DNA from: a virus
Lineage: Duplodnaviria > Caudoviricetes
IMG/VR virus record: IMGVR_UViG_3300043618_000036
Coordinates: 1 to 42,182 of that record
Length of the DNA stretch: 42,182 nucleotides
Direction: 5' to 3' (one strand)
The translations under genes were made by a program, and so were the position numbers. This document shows, in pieces, positions 1,290-39,226 of the stretch (position 1 is the stretch's first letter; each line of letters begins with the position of its first letter). Under the pieces are notes generated by a model that was not told where the DNA came from, ran no database searches, and was given only the letters and a program-made list of their open reading frames with translations.

Positions 1290-1562
1290 TCACTCGCGGA
1301 GCGCGGTGGGCTCTGCCGGTGCGGCGTGATCAGCAAAGGGCGCGGACACAGGATCGCTGCGGTAGAGCCAGTCCGGGAGCAGCTGGTGCACAACAGGAAG
1401 TGCCATCACACGGGTGATGCCCGCCGCGACCGCGATAGCGACAGCCACACCGGCGGTGGACTGCGGAATCCCAGATGCGTCGATGATCAGCGGCAGACCG
1501 GCGGCGAGACCCAGGAAGGTCTGGAGGCCGGTGCGCAGGGTTCTCTGGTTGGCGTCGGACAT
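1290..1562 (-). CDS. Holin (90 aa, two hydrophobic segments)
   Basis: MSDANQRTLRTGLQTFLGLAAGLPLII...; GGAGG RBS; directly downstream of the endolysin. Confidence 0.8.
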   Translation of the reverse strand: MSDANQRTLRTGLQTFLGLAAGLPLIIDASGIPQSTAGVAVAIAVAAGITRVMALPVVHQLLPDWLYRSDPVSAPFADHAAPAEPTALRE

Positions 1563-1573
1563 GAAGGTGCCTC

Positions 1574-2332
1574 CTACTTCGCGGGGATCTTGAGGGTCTG
1601 GCCCGGGTGGATGGTGAACGGCTTGCTGATGTTGTTCTCGCGGGCGATCGCCTGCCAGTTCACGCCGAGGCGTATGCCGATCCCGGACAGAGTGTCGCCA
1701 CCGCGCACCGTGTACGTCGAGGAACCGGAAGCGCCCGGCTTGCCCTTGAGGCGGGCGGCGACGCGCTGCCGCAGGCCGCTCATCGTGAAGCCCCGCGGAT
1801 CGACCTTCCCCGGCTGCCACTCCAGGTGACCGATCACGCTCGCCGCACCCCAGCCGTGAGCACGGCACAGAGCAGCGGAAACACGCTCGATCGCATCCAG
1901 CTGAGCAGCGGTCCAGGGGTCCTGGCCGTCGCCGAGGTTCTCGCACTCCCACCCGTAGAAGTGCGGGTTGCCGTCCTTGTCGGCCTTCGCCGCACGCGGC
2001 AGCGCCTTCTCCGCGATGACCGCCTGGAGGACGGCACTGTCGCCCTTGCCCGCATGGTTCGCACGGCCGTGACCGATCAGGTAGACCGTGCCGTCCTTCG
2101 CGATCACCCCATGACACAGCGGTCCCGGCAGCCCCGAATAGCCGTTCTCGCAGATGCTGACCGTGCTGTTCGTTCCTGAAGTGACCGTGTGGTGGATCAT
2201 CACCCCGTGCGTCGGACCCCATGGGCCCTTCGTGTTGCGGTTGTGGGTTCGCCAGCCGGGCCGCTCGATCACGCGGACGCCTTCGGCCTGAAGTGCTGCG
2301 ACCAGACGGTCGGCAGACAGTGGGGTAGCCAC
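1574..2332 (-). CDS. Endolysin: N-acetylmuramoyl-L-alanine amidase with C-terminal LysM
   Basis: VMIHHT, ANHAG, GWECEN and VIGHLEW amidase motifs; YTVRGGDTLSGI...IHPGQTLKIP LysM. Confidence 0.93.
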   Translation of the reverse strand: MATPLSADRLVAALQAEGVRVIERPGWRTHNRNTKGPWGPTHGVMIHHTVTSGTNSTVSICENGYSGLPGPLCHGVIAKDGTVYLIGHGRANHAGKGDSAVLQAVIAEKALPRAAKADKDGNPHFYGWECENLGDGQDPWTAAQLDAIERVSAALCRAHGWGAASVIGHLEWQPGKVDPRGFTMSGLRQRVAARLKGKPGASGSSTYTVRGGDTLSGIGIRLGVNWQAIARENNISKPFTIHPGQTLKIPAK

Positions 2333-4153: not shown

Positions 4154-7023
<2,870 letters not shown>

Positions 7024-7095: not shown

Positions 7096-8427
7096 TCAGC
7101 CGCCGTCGATCAGCCGTTCCGCGAGGAACGGCGAGAACGTGCCCGCTGGCACGTCCGGGGCGGTGCCGCACATGCCATCCGAGTCCCCTGGCACCTTGAT
7201 CCACAGAAGGTACTCGGCGCCGCCCACCCCGATACTGCTGGGCACGCCGAGGCGCCTCCCGCCCGGGTTGCAGTAGTCGACGTGCTGCCCAGCCCCGTCC
7301 ATCGCGCCGTTCCCGTTGCGGGACGTGTCGATCACGAACCGCACCCCAGGAACGCCGATCCCGGCCAGGGCCTGGGAGACCTGCGTGCCGTACGTCGCGC
7401 TGATGTCGGTGGAGTCGAAGTTCGAGACCCCCACCGCGAAGCCCTTCGTCGCAGCGACTCCGGCAGCGGCCAGCCGGGTTGCCATCTCCTGCGGCTTGAT
7501 CCATGTGGCGTTGCCGCCGTCGAGGTAGGCCCGTACGTGCGGCAGCTTCCCGAGGGCCTGGGCGGCGTAGTCGATCAGACCCAGCCGTTCGGCTCGTGCA
7601 GCGTCGTCCCGCAGCCCTTGGATCTGCGCGAGCGCATCCGGTTCGACGATCACCAGGGCTGGGCGGTCTCCGATGCCGGCGGCCACCGCATCCACCCACG
7701 TTCGGTACAGCTCTGCGGACTTCGCGCCGCCGTGACTTTCTCCGCCGTTGTCGCGATTGAACACGTTGTAGACGGCGAGGATCGGCAGCAGCCCGGCCGC
7801 AGCAGCATCGGTCACGTACGTGTCGACGTCCGCGTTGACATCCTTGTTCCAGTCGCCGAACCACTTCGCCGTCGGCCGCCGCACCAGCCCCCGGGTGATC
7901 TTCCCTGCGCGAGGGTCTTTGGGGTTCTCGCGCACCCACTTCGCCGCGTTCGAGTCCCCGTCGACGAAGAAACCTTCCCTGGGGGTCGAGCACGTCAGGC
8001 GGACTTCGGTCAGGTACACGGTGACGCTGGTGCCCTGCCCAATCTGGAAACTCACCTGCCCCTTCTCGGCGTCGAGTTCGGAGGTGAACGAGTAGTAGAA
8101 GTGCTTGTCGACCGCCGACAGCGTCACCGTCTTGTCGAGGGTGACCGTCCACGGGTCCGCACCCAGCCCCACCTGTGCTCGCAGCAAGGTGCCCGGCTGG
8201 CTGGCCCGAGCGGTGAACGAGAACGTGTAGGTGCAGCCCTTCCGCAGCACGATGCCGTCCTGTCCGAAGGGGGCGTCCCACAGGTTCACCGCATCGGTGG
8301 TCGCGGTGGCCTCCGCCCCGGTTCCTGGGGCTGCGAGGGCGACCATGGCGGGATCACCCGCCCACCAACCGGTGGTTCCGTTGGTGAAGTTGGAGTTGGA
8401 AACGAGATCCGTGTACACGGTGGCCAT
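7096..8427 (-). CDS. CBM4/9-like domain plus GH6 cellulase, no signal peptide (443 aa)
   Basis: YNVFNRD, VEPDAL, YLDGGN..W, IDTSRNGNG, CNPGGR.LG and WIKVPGDSDG GH6 motifs; LVSNSNF..GTTGWW CBM start; begins 21 bp after the tail fibre stop. Confidence 0.9.
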   Translation of the reverse strand: MATVYTDLVSNSNFTNGTTGWWAGDPAMVALAAPGTGAEATATTDAVNLWDAPFGQDGIVLRKGCTYTFSFTARASQPGTLLRAQVGLGADPWTVTLDKTVTLSAVDKHFYYSFTSELDAEKGQVSFQIGQGTSVTVYLTEVRLTCSTPREGFFVDGDSNAAKWVRENPKDPRAGKITRGLVRRPTAKWFGDWNKDVNADVDTYVTDAAAAGLLPILAVYNVFNRDNGGESHGGAKSAELYRTWVDAVAAGIGDRPALVIVEPDALAQIQGLRDDAARAERLGLIDYAAQALGKLPHVRAYLDGGNATWIKPQEMATRLAAAGVAATKGFAVGVSNFDSTDISATYGTQVSQALAGIGVPGVRFVIDTSRNGNGAMDGAGQHVDYCNPGGRRLGVPSSIGVGGAEYLLWIKVPGDSDGMCGTAPDVPAGTFSPFLAERLIDGG

Positions 8428-22464: not shown

Positions 22465-22809
22465 GTGGCGACGCTAGTCGATCAACCCCTCGTGTGGCAG
22501 GGGCTATTGGACAGCCCCCGCCACTTGTCCGGATGCTGTTGGCGAATTCGGAGTGTGATCGCGAAACGCGTCATCGGGCAGGGGCGACCTTGAAGCTCCG
22601 AGTACCTGCTCCTCAAATTGGCATGACGTTGGACTACGTGTAGGAACACGCCGGTGAAGGGGTGGAAATGTCTAGTCGGTCACTTGAAGTGCGGTACTTC
22701 TGGGCAAGGCTGATGCGGCATCCGGGCCGTTCTGCCCATCGGACTACACACGGTCGCCGCCGAGAGCTGCGGGGCCACCCGTTCTTGTAGCGAAGGAAAC
22801 GTGCTTCTC

Positions 22810-23088
22810 ATGCGTCTTACTCAGCGTCTCGTCACCGCACTCGGTGGCCTCGCCCTCGTTGTCTGCCTGGCACCGACCGCTGTCGCGGTCACTCAGCAGT
22901 CGGCGGTTTCGTCGGCGTCGCCGTGCCAGAAGGCCCTGGACGACGCCGCGATCACGCAACGGAATGCCGACACCGTCAACGACGACCCGAAGGCGACGCC
23001 GGAGGATAAGGCGGCTGCCCAGAACGAAGCCGACATGGCGGCGACCACGGCCCAGAGGGTCTGTGACAGCACCGAGCTGGCGAGCTGA
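22810..23088 (+). CDS. Small secreted protein (signal peptide, two Cys in the mature part); cassette passenger
   Basis: MRLTQRLVTALGGLALVVCLAPTAVA signal; alternative GTG start at 22801. Confidence 0.75.
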   Translation: MRLTQRLVTALGGLALVVCLAPTAVAVTQQSAVSSASPCQKALDDAAITQRNADTVNDDPKATPEDKAAAQNEADMAATTAQRVCDSTELAS

Positions 23089-23349: not shown

Positions 23350-23450
23350 TGCCCGCCCCCGGGGTTGAACCGGGAACTCTGCGGGATGTGTACGGATCTC
23401 CCCGTTGGGGGGCCGGTACCGCGCACCTCTACCAGTTGGGTCAGGCGGGC
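23350..23450 (-). ncRNA. tRNA-like RNA (101 nt) with a 34-nt structured segment replacing the anticodon loop
   Basis: Acceptor GCCCGCC/GGCGGGC+A; D arm ACCC-AACTGGTA-GAGGT; T arm CCCGG-TTCAACC-CCGGG; anticodon stem GCGG/CCGC. Confidence 0.8.
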
Positions 23451-23484
23451 TGGAGCGTTGCTCTCGTCTTCGATACTACGGTCG

Positions 23485-23931
23485 TCAAGGCGGCGCCTCT
23501 GGGCTGCTGGTGGCGGACAGCCCGTACCGCTGGCTGCTGGTCACCACCCCGTCCGAGGTTCCTGTGTCGTCCGTACCAGCGTCGGCGTCCAGGTCCCGCG
23601 CCCACACATCCACTCCAGGGATGCCAAGTGCATTGACCCAACCACCGGTTGGGGTCCGTTCGAGGAGCGCCCGGCGCACCTTGTCGGCAAGCCATTCCGC
23701 CTGATCGGTGCGCGCGCCGACCGCCGTCACCTGGTAGAGGAGGACCGCGTCCTCCGCCTGGTCGGCAAGGGGAGCGCCGCCGATCGTCCCGCCGAGCGGG
23801 TAGAGGACCGTGTACGGCACTGGGGTGGGTTTCCCGCCGACCAGAGGGAGGGTGCCGAGTCCGCACGGCTTGCCGGTCGCCCCGGCCAGCATCTCCTGGA
23901 GCGCCCGGTTTACGGGCGAGCGGTCGATCAC
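23485..23931 (-). CDS. Tail terminator/completion protein (148 aa)
   Basis: PYTVLYP and YQVTAVG...QAEWLADKVR motifs; synteny. Confidence 0.75.
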   Translation of the reverse strand: MIDRSPVNRALQEMLAGATGKPCGLGTLPLVGGKPTPVPYTVLYPLGGTIGGAPLADQAEDAVLLYQVTAVGARTDQAEWLADKVRRALLERTPTGGWVNALGIPGVDVWARDLDADAGTDDTGTSDGVVTSSQRYGLSATSSPEAPP

Positions 23932-27070: not shown

Positions 27071-27685
27071 TCATGAAGGCGACACCCAGTCCCGGGCCAG
27101 GCGACGTACGCGGGCCGTACGAGGTCCCGCACTGCGCCAGAGCACAACCAGCAGCACAGGCACGGCGATAGCCCACGCCTTGCCGACCATCTGCCCCGGG
27201 ACAGCTGCCCAGAGCGGGAACCCGGCGATCGTGAGGAACACGATCGTGTCGAGGAGCGCGCCGAGGAGGGTGGCGGGGACGACGGCTCTCACCCAGCCGC
27301 GTCGGCGCAGCGGGGTGTACAGGCACATGTCCGCGCTCTCGGCGACGAGGACGGACGCCGCACTCGCGAACGCCAGGGCAGGCGGGGCGACGAGCGCGGA
27401 CAGCAGAGAGCCGATGAGGACCGCCGTCATGACGCCGCGACGCCCCAAAAGGTCCTGAAGGGAGTTACGGACCATGAGGGCGCCCCCGGCGAGGACCGTT
27501 CCGGCGGTGGCCGTCTGCCCGAACCCGACGGGGATCATCCCGTACGAAGCAGTCAGGGCATTCGCGCCGAGGAGTGCCCCCGCATACGCGGCCAGCCACC
27601 CCAGTGTCGGGCCGAGAGGGAAGACCGGCGGCGGTGTCGGGTAGGTGTTCTGCCAGCTGTGCGAGTGATGGGCGGGCACGGTCAT
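27071..27685 (-). CDS. VUT-family (YhhQ-like) queuosine-precursor transporter (204 aa)
   Basis: IPVGFGQTATAG, RNSLQDLLGRR, AESADMCLYTPLR, DTIVFL and GQMVGK motifs; multi-TM. Confidence 0.82.
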   Translation of the reverse strand: MTVPAHHSHSWQNTYPTPPPVFPLGPTLGWLAAYAGALLGANALTASYGMIPVGFGQTATAGTVLAGGALMVRNSLQDLLGRRGVMTAVLIGSLLSALVAPPALAFASAASVLVAESADMCLYTPLRRRGWVRAVVPATLLGALLDTIVFLTIAGFPLWAAVPGQMVGKAWAIAVPVLLVVLWRSAGPRTARVRRLARDWVSPS

Positions 27686-36488: not shown

Positions 36489-37022
36489 TCAGAAGGTCAG
36501 TTGCTCACCTTGACTGTCCGGCTCGGTCTTCGGTGGTCGCGGTTCAGCGTCGGGTACGTTCCGGTGCGTCTTGAGCCACCATCCGAGCTGCCAGTTCCGG
36601 CAAGTCCGGTAGCGGCGCCCGGATCGCAGGGGCGCACCCAGCGGGATGCTGTGCTCGCCCCACCCGGTGATGGGGCGGGCGTTGGTCAGCTTGACCTTCA
36701 GCCCGGGGACGGTGGCGTCTCCCTCCCAGGTTTCGCCGGGTGCGTGCTCGAAGGCGAGGTGTGCGTTGCGGCCCCAGTCCCAGGGGATGGGCAGGGCGCA
36801 CAGGTACCAGGCGACGGGCGGGTTGTCTGCCGGCAGCAGGAGAGTCTGGGTGCGTCGGCGGTGGCTGACGTCGTGACGGTCGCACTCGGCGAACGTCTTC
36901 AGGCAGTGCTCCGTGAGGTCGACCTCACGGACTCCTGCCAGCCACATGATGCGATAGGTGTCCCTCGCCTCTATCTCGATGCGAACCTGTTCAGGGTTCG
37001 CCCCCGAATTCATTTCCTTCAC
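36489..37022 (-). CDS. Hypothetical protein (177 aa) coupled to the ParB-methyltransferase
   Basis: GTGA overlap; HC...WYLC...NAH residues. Confidence 0.7.
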   Translation of the reverse strand: MKEMNSGANPEQVRIEIEARDTYRIMWLAGVREVDLTEHCLKTFAECDRHDVSHRRRTQTLLLPADNPPVAWYLCALPIPWDWGRNAHLAFEHAPGETWEGDATVPGLKVKLTNARPITGWGEHSIPLGAPLRSGRRYRTCRNWQLGWWLKTHRNVPDAEPRPPKTEPDSQGEQLTF

Positions 37023-38461
37023 CCCTCCAATTTGCTATTCCTATCCTTGATCAATTCTATCAGAATTGCGGCAATTCCTTCATGTTTGTTATGTCGGAAG
37101 TCGTTGGGGTACGGCATATTGAATTCATTGCGGAAAGCCTCTTCGTATTCCTCGATGGGGAATACGCGGGGCTTGCGGCAGATCGCCTTGACGGTGGCGC
37201 GGGACGTGTCGCTGAGCTGCACGTCCTCGAAATATCGGAGCAGTAGGCCGCGCAGGGATTCGGGGGTGTGGTAGCGGATGCGCTGCCACTTCCCCTTCAC
37301 GAACCGCATGTCGACGTTCTCACTGTCGAGGAAGTTCAGGCGGGTCGAGTCGCGGCTGATGGAGTGGCTGGAGTTCTCGTACGCCAGCTCACGTTCCAGG
37401 TTGCGGGTGCCGATGCATACCTGGCCGTCCGCCGCGCACAGGGCGTTCACGGTGAGGAGTACCCAGTGCTGGTAGTCCAGCGACGTGGTGGCGTTGATGA
37501 CGGAGTCCAGCACCACCACCTCGTAAAGGCCCCGCTCCCGCAGCTCCCGCTCGATGCTGCGGATCTGGCCGACGATCGTGCGGATGTCGAGGGAGTACTT
37601 GCCCTTCAGGGTGCGGTACGGCTCGTAGTCCTGAACCTTGTACCCCTTGCCGCGCAGGTGCCGGGCGTAGTCCCCGTGGCCGGCGCCGAAGTCCACCACC
37701 CGCGTGGACGTGGTGATCTGCGGCAGGACGAGGCGCTCCCACACCTCGGACTTGTAGCGGACCTGGTCGGCCTTCGCCTTCGAGGAATGCTCACGGAGCC
37801 GATTGGGCTGCACGATGTGCTGGTTCCACACCGGGGCCTGTTCCTCCAGGCCGCTCCAGTCGTACACGCCGTACTCGCCGGTGAGGTCCTGCACCAGCTC
37901 GGCGGCATCGGAGGACGCGCAGGTCCAGGCGAGGATGTCGAACCGCTGGGTCTTGGCGACGGCCGCGTACTCGGCGTTGAGGACGATGCGTCCCTGGTCG
38001 TCGATGACGACGGACCCCCAGGCTCCGTGGGCTGCGGTCATGAATGCGATCGCCTGCTGGAAGGGCAGGTTCTTCGACTCCTCGACCTGGATGGTCTGCC
38101 ACGGAATCCAGCACCACTGGCCGATCGGCCCCGGTTCCGCGTAGACGAGCGACGACTCGGTCTCGACCCGGTTGTGCAGGAGGTTGAACTTGATCTCGTC
38201 CTGGAGGCGGACCTTCTGCGGCAGGATCATCGCCGGAGTCGTCTCCTGCCCGATCGCCTTCAGCCCCTTGGTTCTCTGGTGACCGGCGACCAGGGTGCCG
38301 TCCGCATTCAGGATGACGGGCTTGACGACACCGTGGCGGCCCAGCGACCCCTGGAGACGGACGAACGACTCGGGGGAAAGACGACGCGGGTTGTACTCCG
38401 CGGGGCGCAGCTTCGCCAACGGGTAGGCGGGATCGAAGCGGACATCGAGACTGCGGCTCAT
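37019..38461 (-). CDS. ParB/Srx domain fused to a SAM-dependent methyltransferase (480 aa)
   Basis: LRPAEYNPR...LVAGHQR ParB motif; VVDFGAGHG SAM motif; VVLDSVINA. Confidence 0.82.
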   Translation of the reverse strand: MSRSLDVRFDPAYPLAKLRPAEYNPRRLSPESFVRLQGSLGRHGVVKPVILNADGTLVAGHQRTKGLKAIGQETTPAMILPQKVRLQDEIKFNLLHNRVETESSLVYAEPGPIGQWCWIPWQTIQVEESKNLPFQQAIAFMTAAHGAWGSVVIDDQGRIVLNAEYAAVAKTQRFDILAWTCASSDAAELVQDLTGEYGVYDWSGLEEQAPVWNQHIVQPNRLREHSSKAKADQVRYKSEVWERLVLPQITTSTRVVDFGAGHGDYARHLRGKGYKVQDYEPYRTLKGKYSLDIRTIVGQIRSIERELRERGLYEVVVLDSVINATTSLDYQHWVLLTVNALCAADGQVCIGTRNLERELAYENSSHSISRDSTRLNFLDSENVDMRFVKGKWQRIRYHTPESLRGLLLRYFEDVQLSDTSRATVKAICRKPRVFPIEEYEEAFRNEFNMPYPNDFRHNKHEGIAAILIELIKDRNSKLEG

Positions 38462-39120
38462 GCCACACCCCCCTCAGAGGCCTGGTGCTCCTCGTTCAGG
38501 ACGTGCCACCCGAACCCGAGATCGGTGTCCTGATCGGCCACGAACCGCTGATACAGGGCGTCGAACAGCTCGACCTCGGCCTGAGTGATCCGCACACGAG
38601 TGGAAGACCACTGCATGTACCCCCACTGGAGATAGTCGACCGACGCCGCCGCCCCCGTGCCGGCGCCGTCGGTGGGCAGCTCGATCGGGGCGGGGAGAAC
38701 GGTGGAGTCGAGGAGGTCGTCCACCTGCCCCTGGTCGTACCCGGTGCCCTCCAGGTCCGGCAGCTCGGAGAGGACTTCCGCGAGGAGGACGCTGTCGTAC
38801 CCGGCGAGGTCGTTGGTGCGGTTGTCGACGATGACGATCTTCGCTGCCGCATCGTCGTCGACGTCGAGCCAGGTGACGGCGATCTGCTCCCAGCCCAGAT
38901 GCCGGGCGGCCTTGAGGGTGTGGTTGCCCGCCAGAACCTCGTTTGCCCGGCCGGTCAGGGTGCCCTTGTTGACGACGATTGGCCGGTACTGCCCGTTCGC
39001 AGTAAGGCTTTCGGCGATCGCTCCGAGGTCACCGGTGCGCGGGTTGCGGTGGTAGTGCACCAGGTCGGCCACAGGGACCGCGAGGTCTGCCAGCGAGGCC
39101 GGGATACGGACTTGAGACAC
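38458..39120 (-). CDS. ParB/Srx N-terminal domain protein (220 aa)
   Basis: YHRNPR, GQYRPIVV, LAGNHT and DNRT motifs. Confidence 0.82.
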   Translation of the reverse strand: MSQVRIPASLADLAVPVADLVHYHRNPRTGDLGAIAESLTANGQYRPIVVNKGTLTGRANEVLAGNHTLKAARHLGWEQIAVTWLDVDDDAAAKIVIVDNRTNDLAGYDSVLLAEVLSELPDLEGTGYDQGQVDDLLDSTVLPAPIELPTDGAGTGAAASVDYLQWGYMQWSSTRVRITQAEVELFDALYQRFVADQDTDLGFGWHVLNEEHQASEGGVA

Positions 39121-39226
39121 GACAGTGCTCCAGCCCCGCACCCACCCACGACTCTAGGTGAGCAGGCGAGCCAGGCCGTGCGGTTGCCGGGATGCGGATC
39201 ACCGTGCACGGGGGCACGGTGGACGC

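Follow-up and report, generated by a model that had tools for sequence, protein, structure and literature searches.

What does an RNA with the body of a tRNA and no anticodon do in the late operon of a phage? The question is raised by a stretch of viral DNA of 42,182 nucleotides (IMG/VR record IMGVR_UViG_3300043618_000036; hereafter the window), whose minus strand carries, according to a profile search of its open reading frames, a siphoviral late operon with terminase, portal, scaffold, capsid, connector, major tail, tape measure and minor tail genes. Relatives retrieved with the connector gene of the window are Streptomyces prophages. The RNA lies between that gene and the major tail gene, in a region with the following features.

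23485..23931, minus strand: head-tail connector gene, upstream of the RNA; a tail terminator by position only
23473..23478, minus strand: possible -10-like TAGNNT, present in 3/3 copies having this leader
23453..23463, minus strand: leader hairpin of 4 bp with an AAY loop, abutting the predicted RNase P site on its 5′ side
23350..23450, minus strand: predicted non-decoding, tRNA-Leu-derived RNA gene, long type A, 7/5 form (ARAGORN with introns, family covariance model)
23444..23450, minus strand: 5′ strand of the acceptor stem, paired with 23351-23357; perfect 7 bp
23425..23441, minus strand: Leu-type D arm with A14 A15 and G18 G19, matching host type I tRNA-Leu(CAA) and a phage tRNA-Leu(CAG) (L153)
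23381..23422, minus strand: extended anticodon arm (unguided RNAalifold on in-register copies; pair counts)
23385..23418, minus strand: 34-nt segment in place of the 7-nt anticodon loop (from the sequence)
23358..23374, minus strand: T arm, perfect 5-bp stem and TTCAACC loop
21494..23349, no strand assigned: variable cargo slot from the RNA to the major tail gene (comparison with relatives)

Anatomy and detection of the RNA

The RNA is 101 nt long, or 104 nt with CCA. A preliminary description of this DNA had proposed a tRNA body on the minus strand with a 34-nt segment substituted for its anticodon loop, and the stems, the discriminator and the T loop all bear this out. The discriminator is an A at 23350, and CCA is not encoded, which is ordinary: most of the 50 distinct tRNA sequences of a host genome (G001) are likewise without it. 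The D arm, described as canonical-looking with GG, does contain G18 and G19, but its pairs (A10-U25, C11-G24, C12-G23 and C13.A22) are those of a Leu D arm rather than of the common GCUC/GAGC type. The variable loop has 5 nt and is preceded by a C27.A43 mismatch.

The anticodon arm is built, in order, from a 4-bp stem (GCGG/CCGC), a 3 × 8 internal loop, a CGG/CCG helix, a 4-nt 3′ bulge and a C-rich/G-rich capping hairpin. From the TAC.CGG/CCGTAC helix originally drawn here, the CGG/CCG part is retained, but the 3′-side GTAC occurs in only 7/17 long-type copies and falls away. The absence of U33 and of an obvious anticodon had been read correctly, as position 33 is an A and no anticodon is conserved in the family.

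Default ARAGORN finds no tRNA and no tmRNA in the window. With introns allowed, a check suggested at the outset, the RNA is the sole gene called, as Gly(ACC); this call alone is weak, because the same search also calls a gene in 9 of 100 shuffled windows. A strict descriptor (perfect 7 + 5 bp, TTCRA, U8) matches once in the window and never in 100 shuffles, and the copy scores 112 bits on the family covariance model, which was trained with the window copy included. Rfam returns no match to the RNA at E ≤ 1, RF00005 included. Folded as a single sequence, the RNA is of unremarkable stability (z = -0.75), with the cloverleaf at -37.9 against -43.8 kcal/mol for the minimum free energy structure and a pairing probability of 2–4% in the D and anticodon stems. 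A reading of the element as a DNA operator was rejected; at three mismatches the invariant core has five matches in the window against a mean of 2.2, which is not beyond chance.

Position in the tail operon

The RNA starts 34 nt after the stop codon of the connector gene. It had been said to follow the tail-terminator gene; the position is right, but the identity of that gene comes from gene order only, its protein having no PHROG or Pfam match. Similarity between the window and its relatives stops a few bases past the RNA, which opens the cargo slot, 1.0–3.9 kb in size among the closer relatives. The content of the slot varies between relatives; in the window it has three small ORFs, none of them matched by PHROG, Pfam or PADLOC, of which one on the plus strand (22801-23088) has a signal-peptide-like N terminus. 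Among 43 loci with the same connector gene, one (L018) has the RNA, identical to that of the window at 98/101 positions, and 42 are without it.

The 4-bp leader hairpin is retained in the window, L018 and L159. Near the TAGNNT, which we take to be -10-like, no -35 is seen, and a promoter search found no sigma-70 promoter. The RNA had also been credited with its own terminator, which does not hold up: a terminator search after the RNA found no terminator-like site, the hairpin has z = -1.35 and the putative terminator sequence is not conserved in relatives.

Elsewhere in the window, a region after the capsid gene (27071-27560, minus strand) resembles transporters of the Vut_1/YhhQ family, which is associated with preQ0 transport. 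Two ParB-domain genes upstream of the terminase gene (37019-39141, minus strand), one of them fused to a methyltransferase domain, are a probable DNA-modification pair. After the tail genes, a two-domain terpene synthase (4315-6594, minus strand) and a CBM4-GH6 cellulase (7096-8427, minus strand) probably belong to host DNA flanking the prophage.

A mobile family in Streptomyces prophages

The RNA is one of 41 full-length copies, all in Streptomyces prophages. In a BLAST search with the RNA, 16 of 401 genus-level genomes (the centre genome counted) had full-length copies, and a family-level sample of 401 genomes yielded 11 further genomes and one degraded copy; the unpublished genomes G131 and G442 enter only into the denominators. 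Carriage is in prophages of ~3–4% of the sampled Streptomyces genomes. All 11 matches of an IMG/VR pattern scan are members, some being duplicates of genome copies. Members made up 2 of 30 matches in one search; in another, 9 of 24 were known members and the other 15 included one new, contig-cut member. Matches to a D-arm pattern in viral contigs (5/5) and metagenomes (9/9) were rejected as chance. Mean pairwise identity is 83% among 37 parsed copies (36 distinct), a set from which L090, L095 and L157 were left out as unparsed. On a covariance model with 27 members in its training set, members score 85–113 bits, degraded copies ~60 bits and ordinary tRNA-Leu at most 59 bits; degraded or truncated copies are those of L090, L094, L092, L096, L100 and L101. 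The 50,697 deposited phage records and the deposited plasmids searched yielded no member, and none lay outside Streptomycetaceae in class-wide samples, where a pattern search of 400 genomes gave one match, by chance, and a covariance-model search of 150 genomes gave only matches of 72–92 nt below 50 bits. The two best of the latter were inspected and rejected as ordinary tRNAs.

The copies occupy three kinds of genomic site, namely integrase-terminase slots, tail-operon slots and a tRNA cluster, the last with one copy inside it. Most copies are flanked by a large serine recombinase on one side and HNH/terminase or capsid genes on the other. Six copies directly follow the connector gene (window, L018, L159, L115, L119 and L124), with two different leaders. 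The RNA is always in sense with the upstream gene. Several copies adjoin an intact tRNA-Leu or tRNA-Trp, and an intact tRNA adjoins the copy in L161 (13 nt away), L164, L110, L137 and L160. The L160 copy (1500-1595, plus strand), which is of the short type and downstream of tRNA-Trp, has its own encoded CCA.

No partner gene is common to all contexts, the scanned neighbours being ordinary phage genes or cargo. PADLOC on 25 neighbours found no defence or partner gene beyond a methyltransferase, a subtilase and an HTH domain, and no transferase, Ro60 or other conserved partner is among the neighbours scanned. An attachment-site reading was rejected on the truncated copies, which have no common breakpoint. 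In the literature searched, mostly open access, no description of this family was found, and it is apparently undescribed.

Related loci contain other elements. A structured RNA of ~230 nt (L082:1250-1473, plus strand; L097:1601-1828, minus strand; L088:1243-1461, plus strand; and ~25 other distinct loci) has an AGUA/GAA loop-E-like motif and both-side changes at 20/64 predicted pairs (14 sequences), and in integrase-slot prophages it often ends 20–40 nt upstream of a family member or an ordinary tRNA-Leu. It has no Rfam match and is absent from the window. Between it and the recombinase, at L082:980-1073, L085:1959-2053 and related loci, an A/T-rich core within an inverted repeat is followed by one to four direct repeats of ~30 bp; the region may serve in packaging, as an origin or as an operator. 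Other viral tRNA-like genes, not related to this family, carry 32–41 nt of extra sequence 3′ of the anticodon; they are found at L058:1490-1593 and L060:1490-1605 (both plus strand) and in L077.

Fold and covariation of the extended arm

The segment replacing the anticodon loop is either long (31–37 nt; 18/37 copies) or short (22–28 nt; 19/37), and TACCGG opens it in 34 of the 37 parsed copies, so that the arm base is near-invariant. Both types fold as a single arm with a 4-bp anticodon stem, an internal loop or bulge, a 3–4-bp helix, a 3–4-nt 3′ bulge and a capping hairpin. The 3–4-nt bulge is retained in both types; the length and loop of the capping hairpin are free to vary. Over the family the anticodon loop feature measures 22–37 nt (8 nt in L098) and has A at 33, the canonical 7-nt loop, U33 and a Leu anticodon being absent.

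Unguided RNAalifold recovers the full cloverleaf and the extended arm from in-register sets; when 7/5 and 6/6 copies were aligned together, it found neither the acceptor stem nor the D stem. Both-side changes occur at 6/26 and 6/24 pairs in two in-register alignments, mostly in the acceptor and T stems (4/7 acceptor pairs among eight 7/5 type A copies, and 3/5 T-stem pairs among 17 type A copies). The anticodon stem has one, G30-C40 to C30-G40, and the capping hairpin has one, at its top. Most pairs of the extension never vary, and are conserved rather than covarying. The named pairs are intact at 95% and 98%, above shuffled and slid controls in percent paired.

The preliminary description had considered that homologues might have a normal 7-nt loop, which would make the RNA a pseudo-tRNA. 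The homologues instead keep the extension. The sole short-loop copy, L098, has lost it and has an intact body with an 8-nt loop; in the tree it groups inside the family with L088 (UFBoot 95), which marks it as derived by deletion and led us to reject it as an ancestor or spliced form.

Selection and tRNA-Leu ancestry

The RNA of L018 agrees with that of the window at 97% of positions, compared with 80% for the adjacent gene and 53% for the four-fold sites of that gene (98/101 for the RNA against 45/85 for the four-fold sites; Fisher p = 2e-13). Four other pairs tested go in the same direction (p ≤ 0.003), and the 100 nt downstream of the RNA are unrelated between the window and L018. These comparisons support purifying selection on the RNA. 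The original argument against random decay gains from this selection, from the 41-copy family and from the compensatory pairs, and the RNA is a conserved, selected and mobile gene family, not a one-off pseudogene.

The same loci carry ordinary short-arm tRNA-Leu(UAG/CAG) genes whose acceptor and T arm are the same. The nearest relative is the phage tRNA-Leu(CAG) of L153, which also has U8-G9-A10 in common with the family. All 41 copies form one clade in a tree built without the insert (UFBoot 92, 71 columns), and FastTree with the insert likewise gives the family as one clade. Among the 50 distinct tRNA sequences of the host G001, only type I tRNA-Leu(CAA) has the same D arm. Sequence comparison therefore indicates that the RNA family is descended from a phage short-variable-arm tRNA-Leu.

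A second, sister family has the same acceptor and T arms (L169:1450-1525, plus strand; L171:1501-1576, minus strand; L181:1450-1525, plus strand; L154:1501-1572, minus strand). In this family the anticodon stem is extended to ~7 bp (to 5 bp in L154), and no normal anticodon is present in its 6-nt loop; decoding was apparently lost here independently.

Two forms of the acceptor/T helix

The acceptor and T stems are partitioned as 7/5 in 19 copies and as 6/6 in another 19, with 3 discordant (n = 41). In the 6/6 copies one acceptor base is lost and one T-stem base gained, which keeps the total at 12 bp, and the 12-bp helix is fully paired in 30/37 parsed copies. The 6/6 copies can alternatively be drawn as 7/5 with U7.G66, but RNAalifold chose 6/6. 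The 6/6 set is probably one clade and therefore reflects one or few events. The length of the acceptor/T helix is also read by RNase P and the CCA enzyme. EF-Tu recognizes the 12-bp length (PMC5389517), and the forms listed in the relevant sections of PMC5389517 and PMC7609411 are 7/5, 8/4, 9/3, 8/5 and 9/4, with no 6/6 among them. The family offers a natural 6/6 helix.

Relation to known tRNA-like RNAs

The direct ancestor, type I tRNA-Leu of Streptomyces and its prophages (PMC6614811; RF00005), has the same acceptor, D arm, 5-nt variable loop and T arm, and it also has A14-A15/U48, mostly A73 and the genomic slot in common with the mimic. The canonical tRNA-Leu cloverleaf with a 12-bp acceptor/T helix and D/T elbow motifs is present. 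The mimic differs in having no 7-nt loop, U33 or anticodon, in its extended arm and C27.A43 mismatch, in the 6/6 form of about half its copies and in having no RF00005 match. Allo-tRNAs and irregular tRNA polycistrons (Mukai et al., PMC5389517) likewise have a repartitioned 12-bp acceptor branch, and some of them are thought, in that paper, to be non-translational and linked to toxin-antitoxin loci. Allo-tRNAs as described there come from other phyla, are 8/4 or 9/3 and Sec/Ser-like, and have both an anticodon loop and a long variable arm, whereas the mimic is 7/5 or 6/6, Leu-derived and anticodon-less with a short variable loop.

The YrlA Y RNA (PMC4201824) has, like the mimic, a tRNA-like D/T/acceptor module without decoding, and a YrlA-type RNA of M. 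smegmatis is described in the same source as cut by RNase P and receiving CCA. However, YrlA adjoins Ro60 and its acceptor stem is internal, whereas the termini of the mimic are those of its acceptor stem; Rfam gives no match to YrlA, and there is no TROVE match among the neighbour ORFs scanned. A tmRNA has G3.U70, a tag ORF and no D stem, in contrast to the mimic, which has C3-G70 and a D arm and is not called as tmRNA by ARAGORN. The species 1 RNA of phage T4 is a stable tRNA-like RNA that does not decode. Bacillus cereus tRNA-Other (cited in PMC5389517) is also stable, tRNA-like and non-decoding, as is predicted for the mimic; these two likenesses are leads only. Phage tRNAs that evade tRNA-targeting defences (PMC11555353; PMC11245113) are a further case of phage-borne tRNA genes facing host defence, but as described they replace the destroyed tRNA in translation, which the mimic cannot do. 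The mimic falls outside tRNA-Leu proper, intron-containing tRNA, allo-tRNA, YrlA and tmRNA.

Proposed function

The RNA is probably a non-decoding tRNA-Leu mimic that would be processed by RNase P, receive CCA and be leucylated, all of these together. Processing and leucylation are likely because the family keeps the features that determine recognition by LeuRS. According to PMC6614811, type I tRNA-Leu is charged by the S. coelicolor LeuRS, for which U8:A14, a variable loop no shorter than 5 nt and C74 are required and A73 is dispensable. By sequence, the mimic has the first two: U8 is invariant in 27 aligned copies, A14-A15 is present in 37/37 and the variable loop has 5–6 nt in 37/37, and C74 would come with CCA. 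The A. aeolicus LeuRS charges tRNA-Leu after deletion of the whole anticodon arm (PMC2377443), a result echoed in PMC9976931. A non-decoding tRNA mimic was among the functions first suggested, and the 41-copy family, purifying selection, compensatory pairs and absence of a conserved anticodon all favour it.

We propose that an RNase P cut and 3′ trimming would release the RNA from its transcript, that CCA would be added and leucine attached by host LeuRS, and that an arm about twice the normal length with no anticodon loop would misfit the decoding site, so that the RNA would be excluded from decoding. Its most likely task, tentatively, would then be that of a trans-acting decoy, drawing off defence or toxin enzymes of the host that hold tRNAs by the acceptor end or elbow. 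Acceptor-reading toxins, such as toxSAS and GNAT, are described in anti-phage defence (PMC11245113). The near-invariant arm base could be a site for a protein or a feature stabilizing the RNA.

A charged, non-decoding RNA acting as a decoy in trans is our best overall explanation, one that we put forward tentatively. It was chosen because selection preserves the top half, the gene moves between slots as cargo does and it is retained beside working tRNAs; action in trans is suggested because beside an intact tRNA a processing tag would be redundant. The decoy role is the weakest step. A decoy for acceptor-reading toxins needs no conserved new arm, and an ordinary tRNA-Leu would serve. In a decoy recognized by its acceptor sequence, moreover, the acceptor should vary less than the arm base, and it varies more. 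The decoy for anticodon nucleases that was also suggested at first is unlikely because the RNA has lost its anticodon loop.

Alternative explanations

The main rival to the decoy role, in our judgement somewhat unlikely, is that the element works in cis, a processing signal having been among the first suggestions. The late transcript would be cut at the tRNA-like structure by RNase P and on the 3′ side, so as to mature or stabilize the upstream RNA, which is the connector mRNA here and the 230-nt structured RNA in most relatives, and the anticodon would be free to be lost. The constant sense orientation to the upstream gene fits such a tag, as do the hairpin directly 5′ of the predicted cut in both tail-operon lineages, the structured RNA of integrase slots that often ends 20–40 nt before the mimic or an ordinary tRNA-Leu, and the retention of the 12-bp helix. 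However, a tag leaves the near-invariant arm base (34/37) unexplained, and the element is absent from 42/43 related tail operons and retained both in tandem with intact tRNAs and within a tRNA cluster. The arm base is better explained if the Leu-charged body serves as an adaptor or aminoacyl donor. The new arm would bind one particular protein of phage or host, and the RNA would deliver leucine off the ribosome or tether that protein to LeuRS/EF-Tu, much as in a Y RNA, where a stem that binds protein is joined to a tRNA-like module. The sequence of the arm base is invariant while the acceptor and T stems covary, the 3–4-nt bulge is kept in both arm types and the LeuRS determinants are retained; but no conserved transferase, Ro60 or other partner appears among the scanned neighbours, and L098 has an intact body without the extension, and we regard an adaptor as unlikely. 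The RNA might also titrate LeuRS/EF-Tu, slowing host translation or biasing leucine supply in lysogeny or lysis. This would suit an RNA with a 12-bp helix that is predicted to be chargeable and non-decoding, yet it is decidedly improbable, as very high abundance would be required, late phage translation would also be harmed and a working tRNA-Leu is often adjacent.

It is very improbable that a tRNA-Leu was inactivated once by a hairpin insertion and then hitch-hiked with prophage modules. Degraded and truncated copies do exist, all copies come from integrated prophages or viral contigs, many of the prophages may be cryptic, and the family is narrow, with no member in class-wide samples. Nevertheless, identity far above that of neighbouring silent sites largely refutes a pseudogene, and the compensatory pairs, the coupled 6/6 shift and the two arm types, each re-forming a hairpin, also speak against it. 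Hardly credible is a small intron, whose excision would leave a working tRNA, the Gly(ACC) or Asp(ATC) of ARAGORN. ARAGORN with introns calls several copies, one excision that would leave U33 and a purine at 37 is possible in 13/19 copies of the short type, and the 8-nt loop of L098 resembles joined ends. However, such a product is permitted by 0/18 long-type copies, the window included, and the intron-like insertion suggested originally is unlikely because no excision in the long type yields a normal anticodon loop. In the short type, excision would place an Asp or Gly anticodon and G38 on a Leu body. The covariation of G30-C40 to C30-G40 breaks the ARAGORN register, and the folds, on inspection, do not have their bulges on the sides that a bulge-helix-bulge site requires. 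Rfam gives no match that would indicate a self-splicing core, L098 nests inside the family (UFBoot 95 with L088), and a segment on the scale of 34 nt is too short to self-splice.

Implications

It is possible, if rather doubtful, that temperate Streptomyces phages have turned a tRNA-Leu into a ribosome-excluded, leucine-charged effector RNA with a protein-binding arm and a 6/6 form, and have repeated this in the sister family. Such an effector could be either an anti-defence sponge or a non-ribosomal aminoacyl adaptor. Genes of this kind are missed by default tRNA scanners and Rfam or mislabelled as intron-containing Gly/Asp tRNAs. The host genus is genetically tractable and its LeuRS is characterized. 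The usual accounts of phage tRNAs, codon supply and the replacement of tRNAs that defences destroy, both need an anticodon; with a selected, mobile family that has a traceable tRNA-Leu ancestor and no anticodon, roles of phage tRNA-like RNAs besides decoding become testable.
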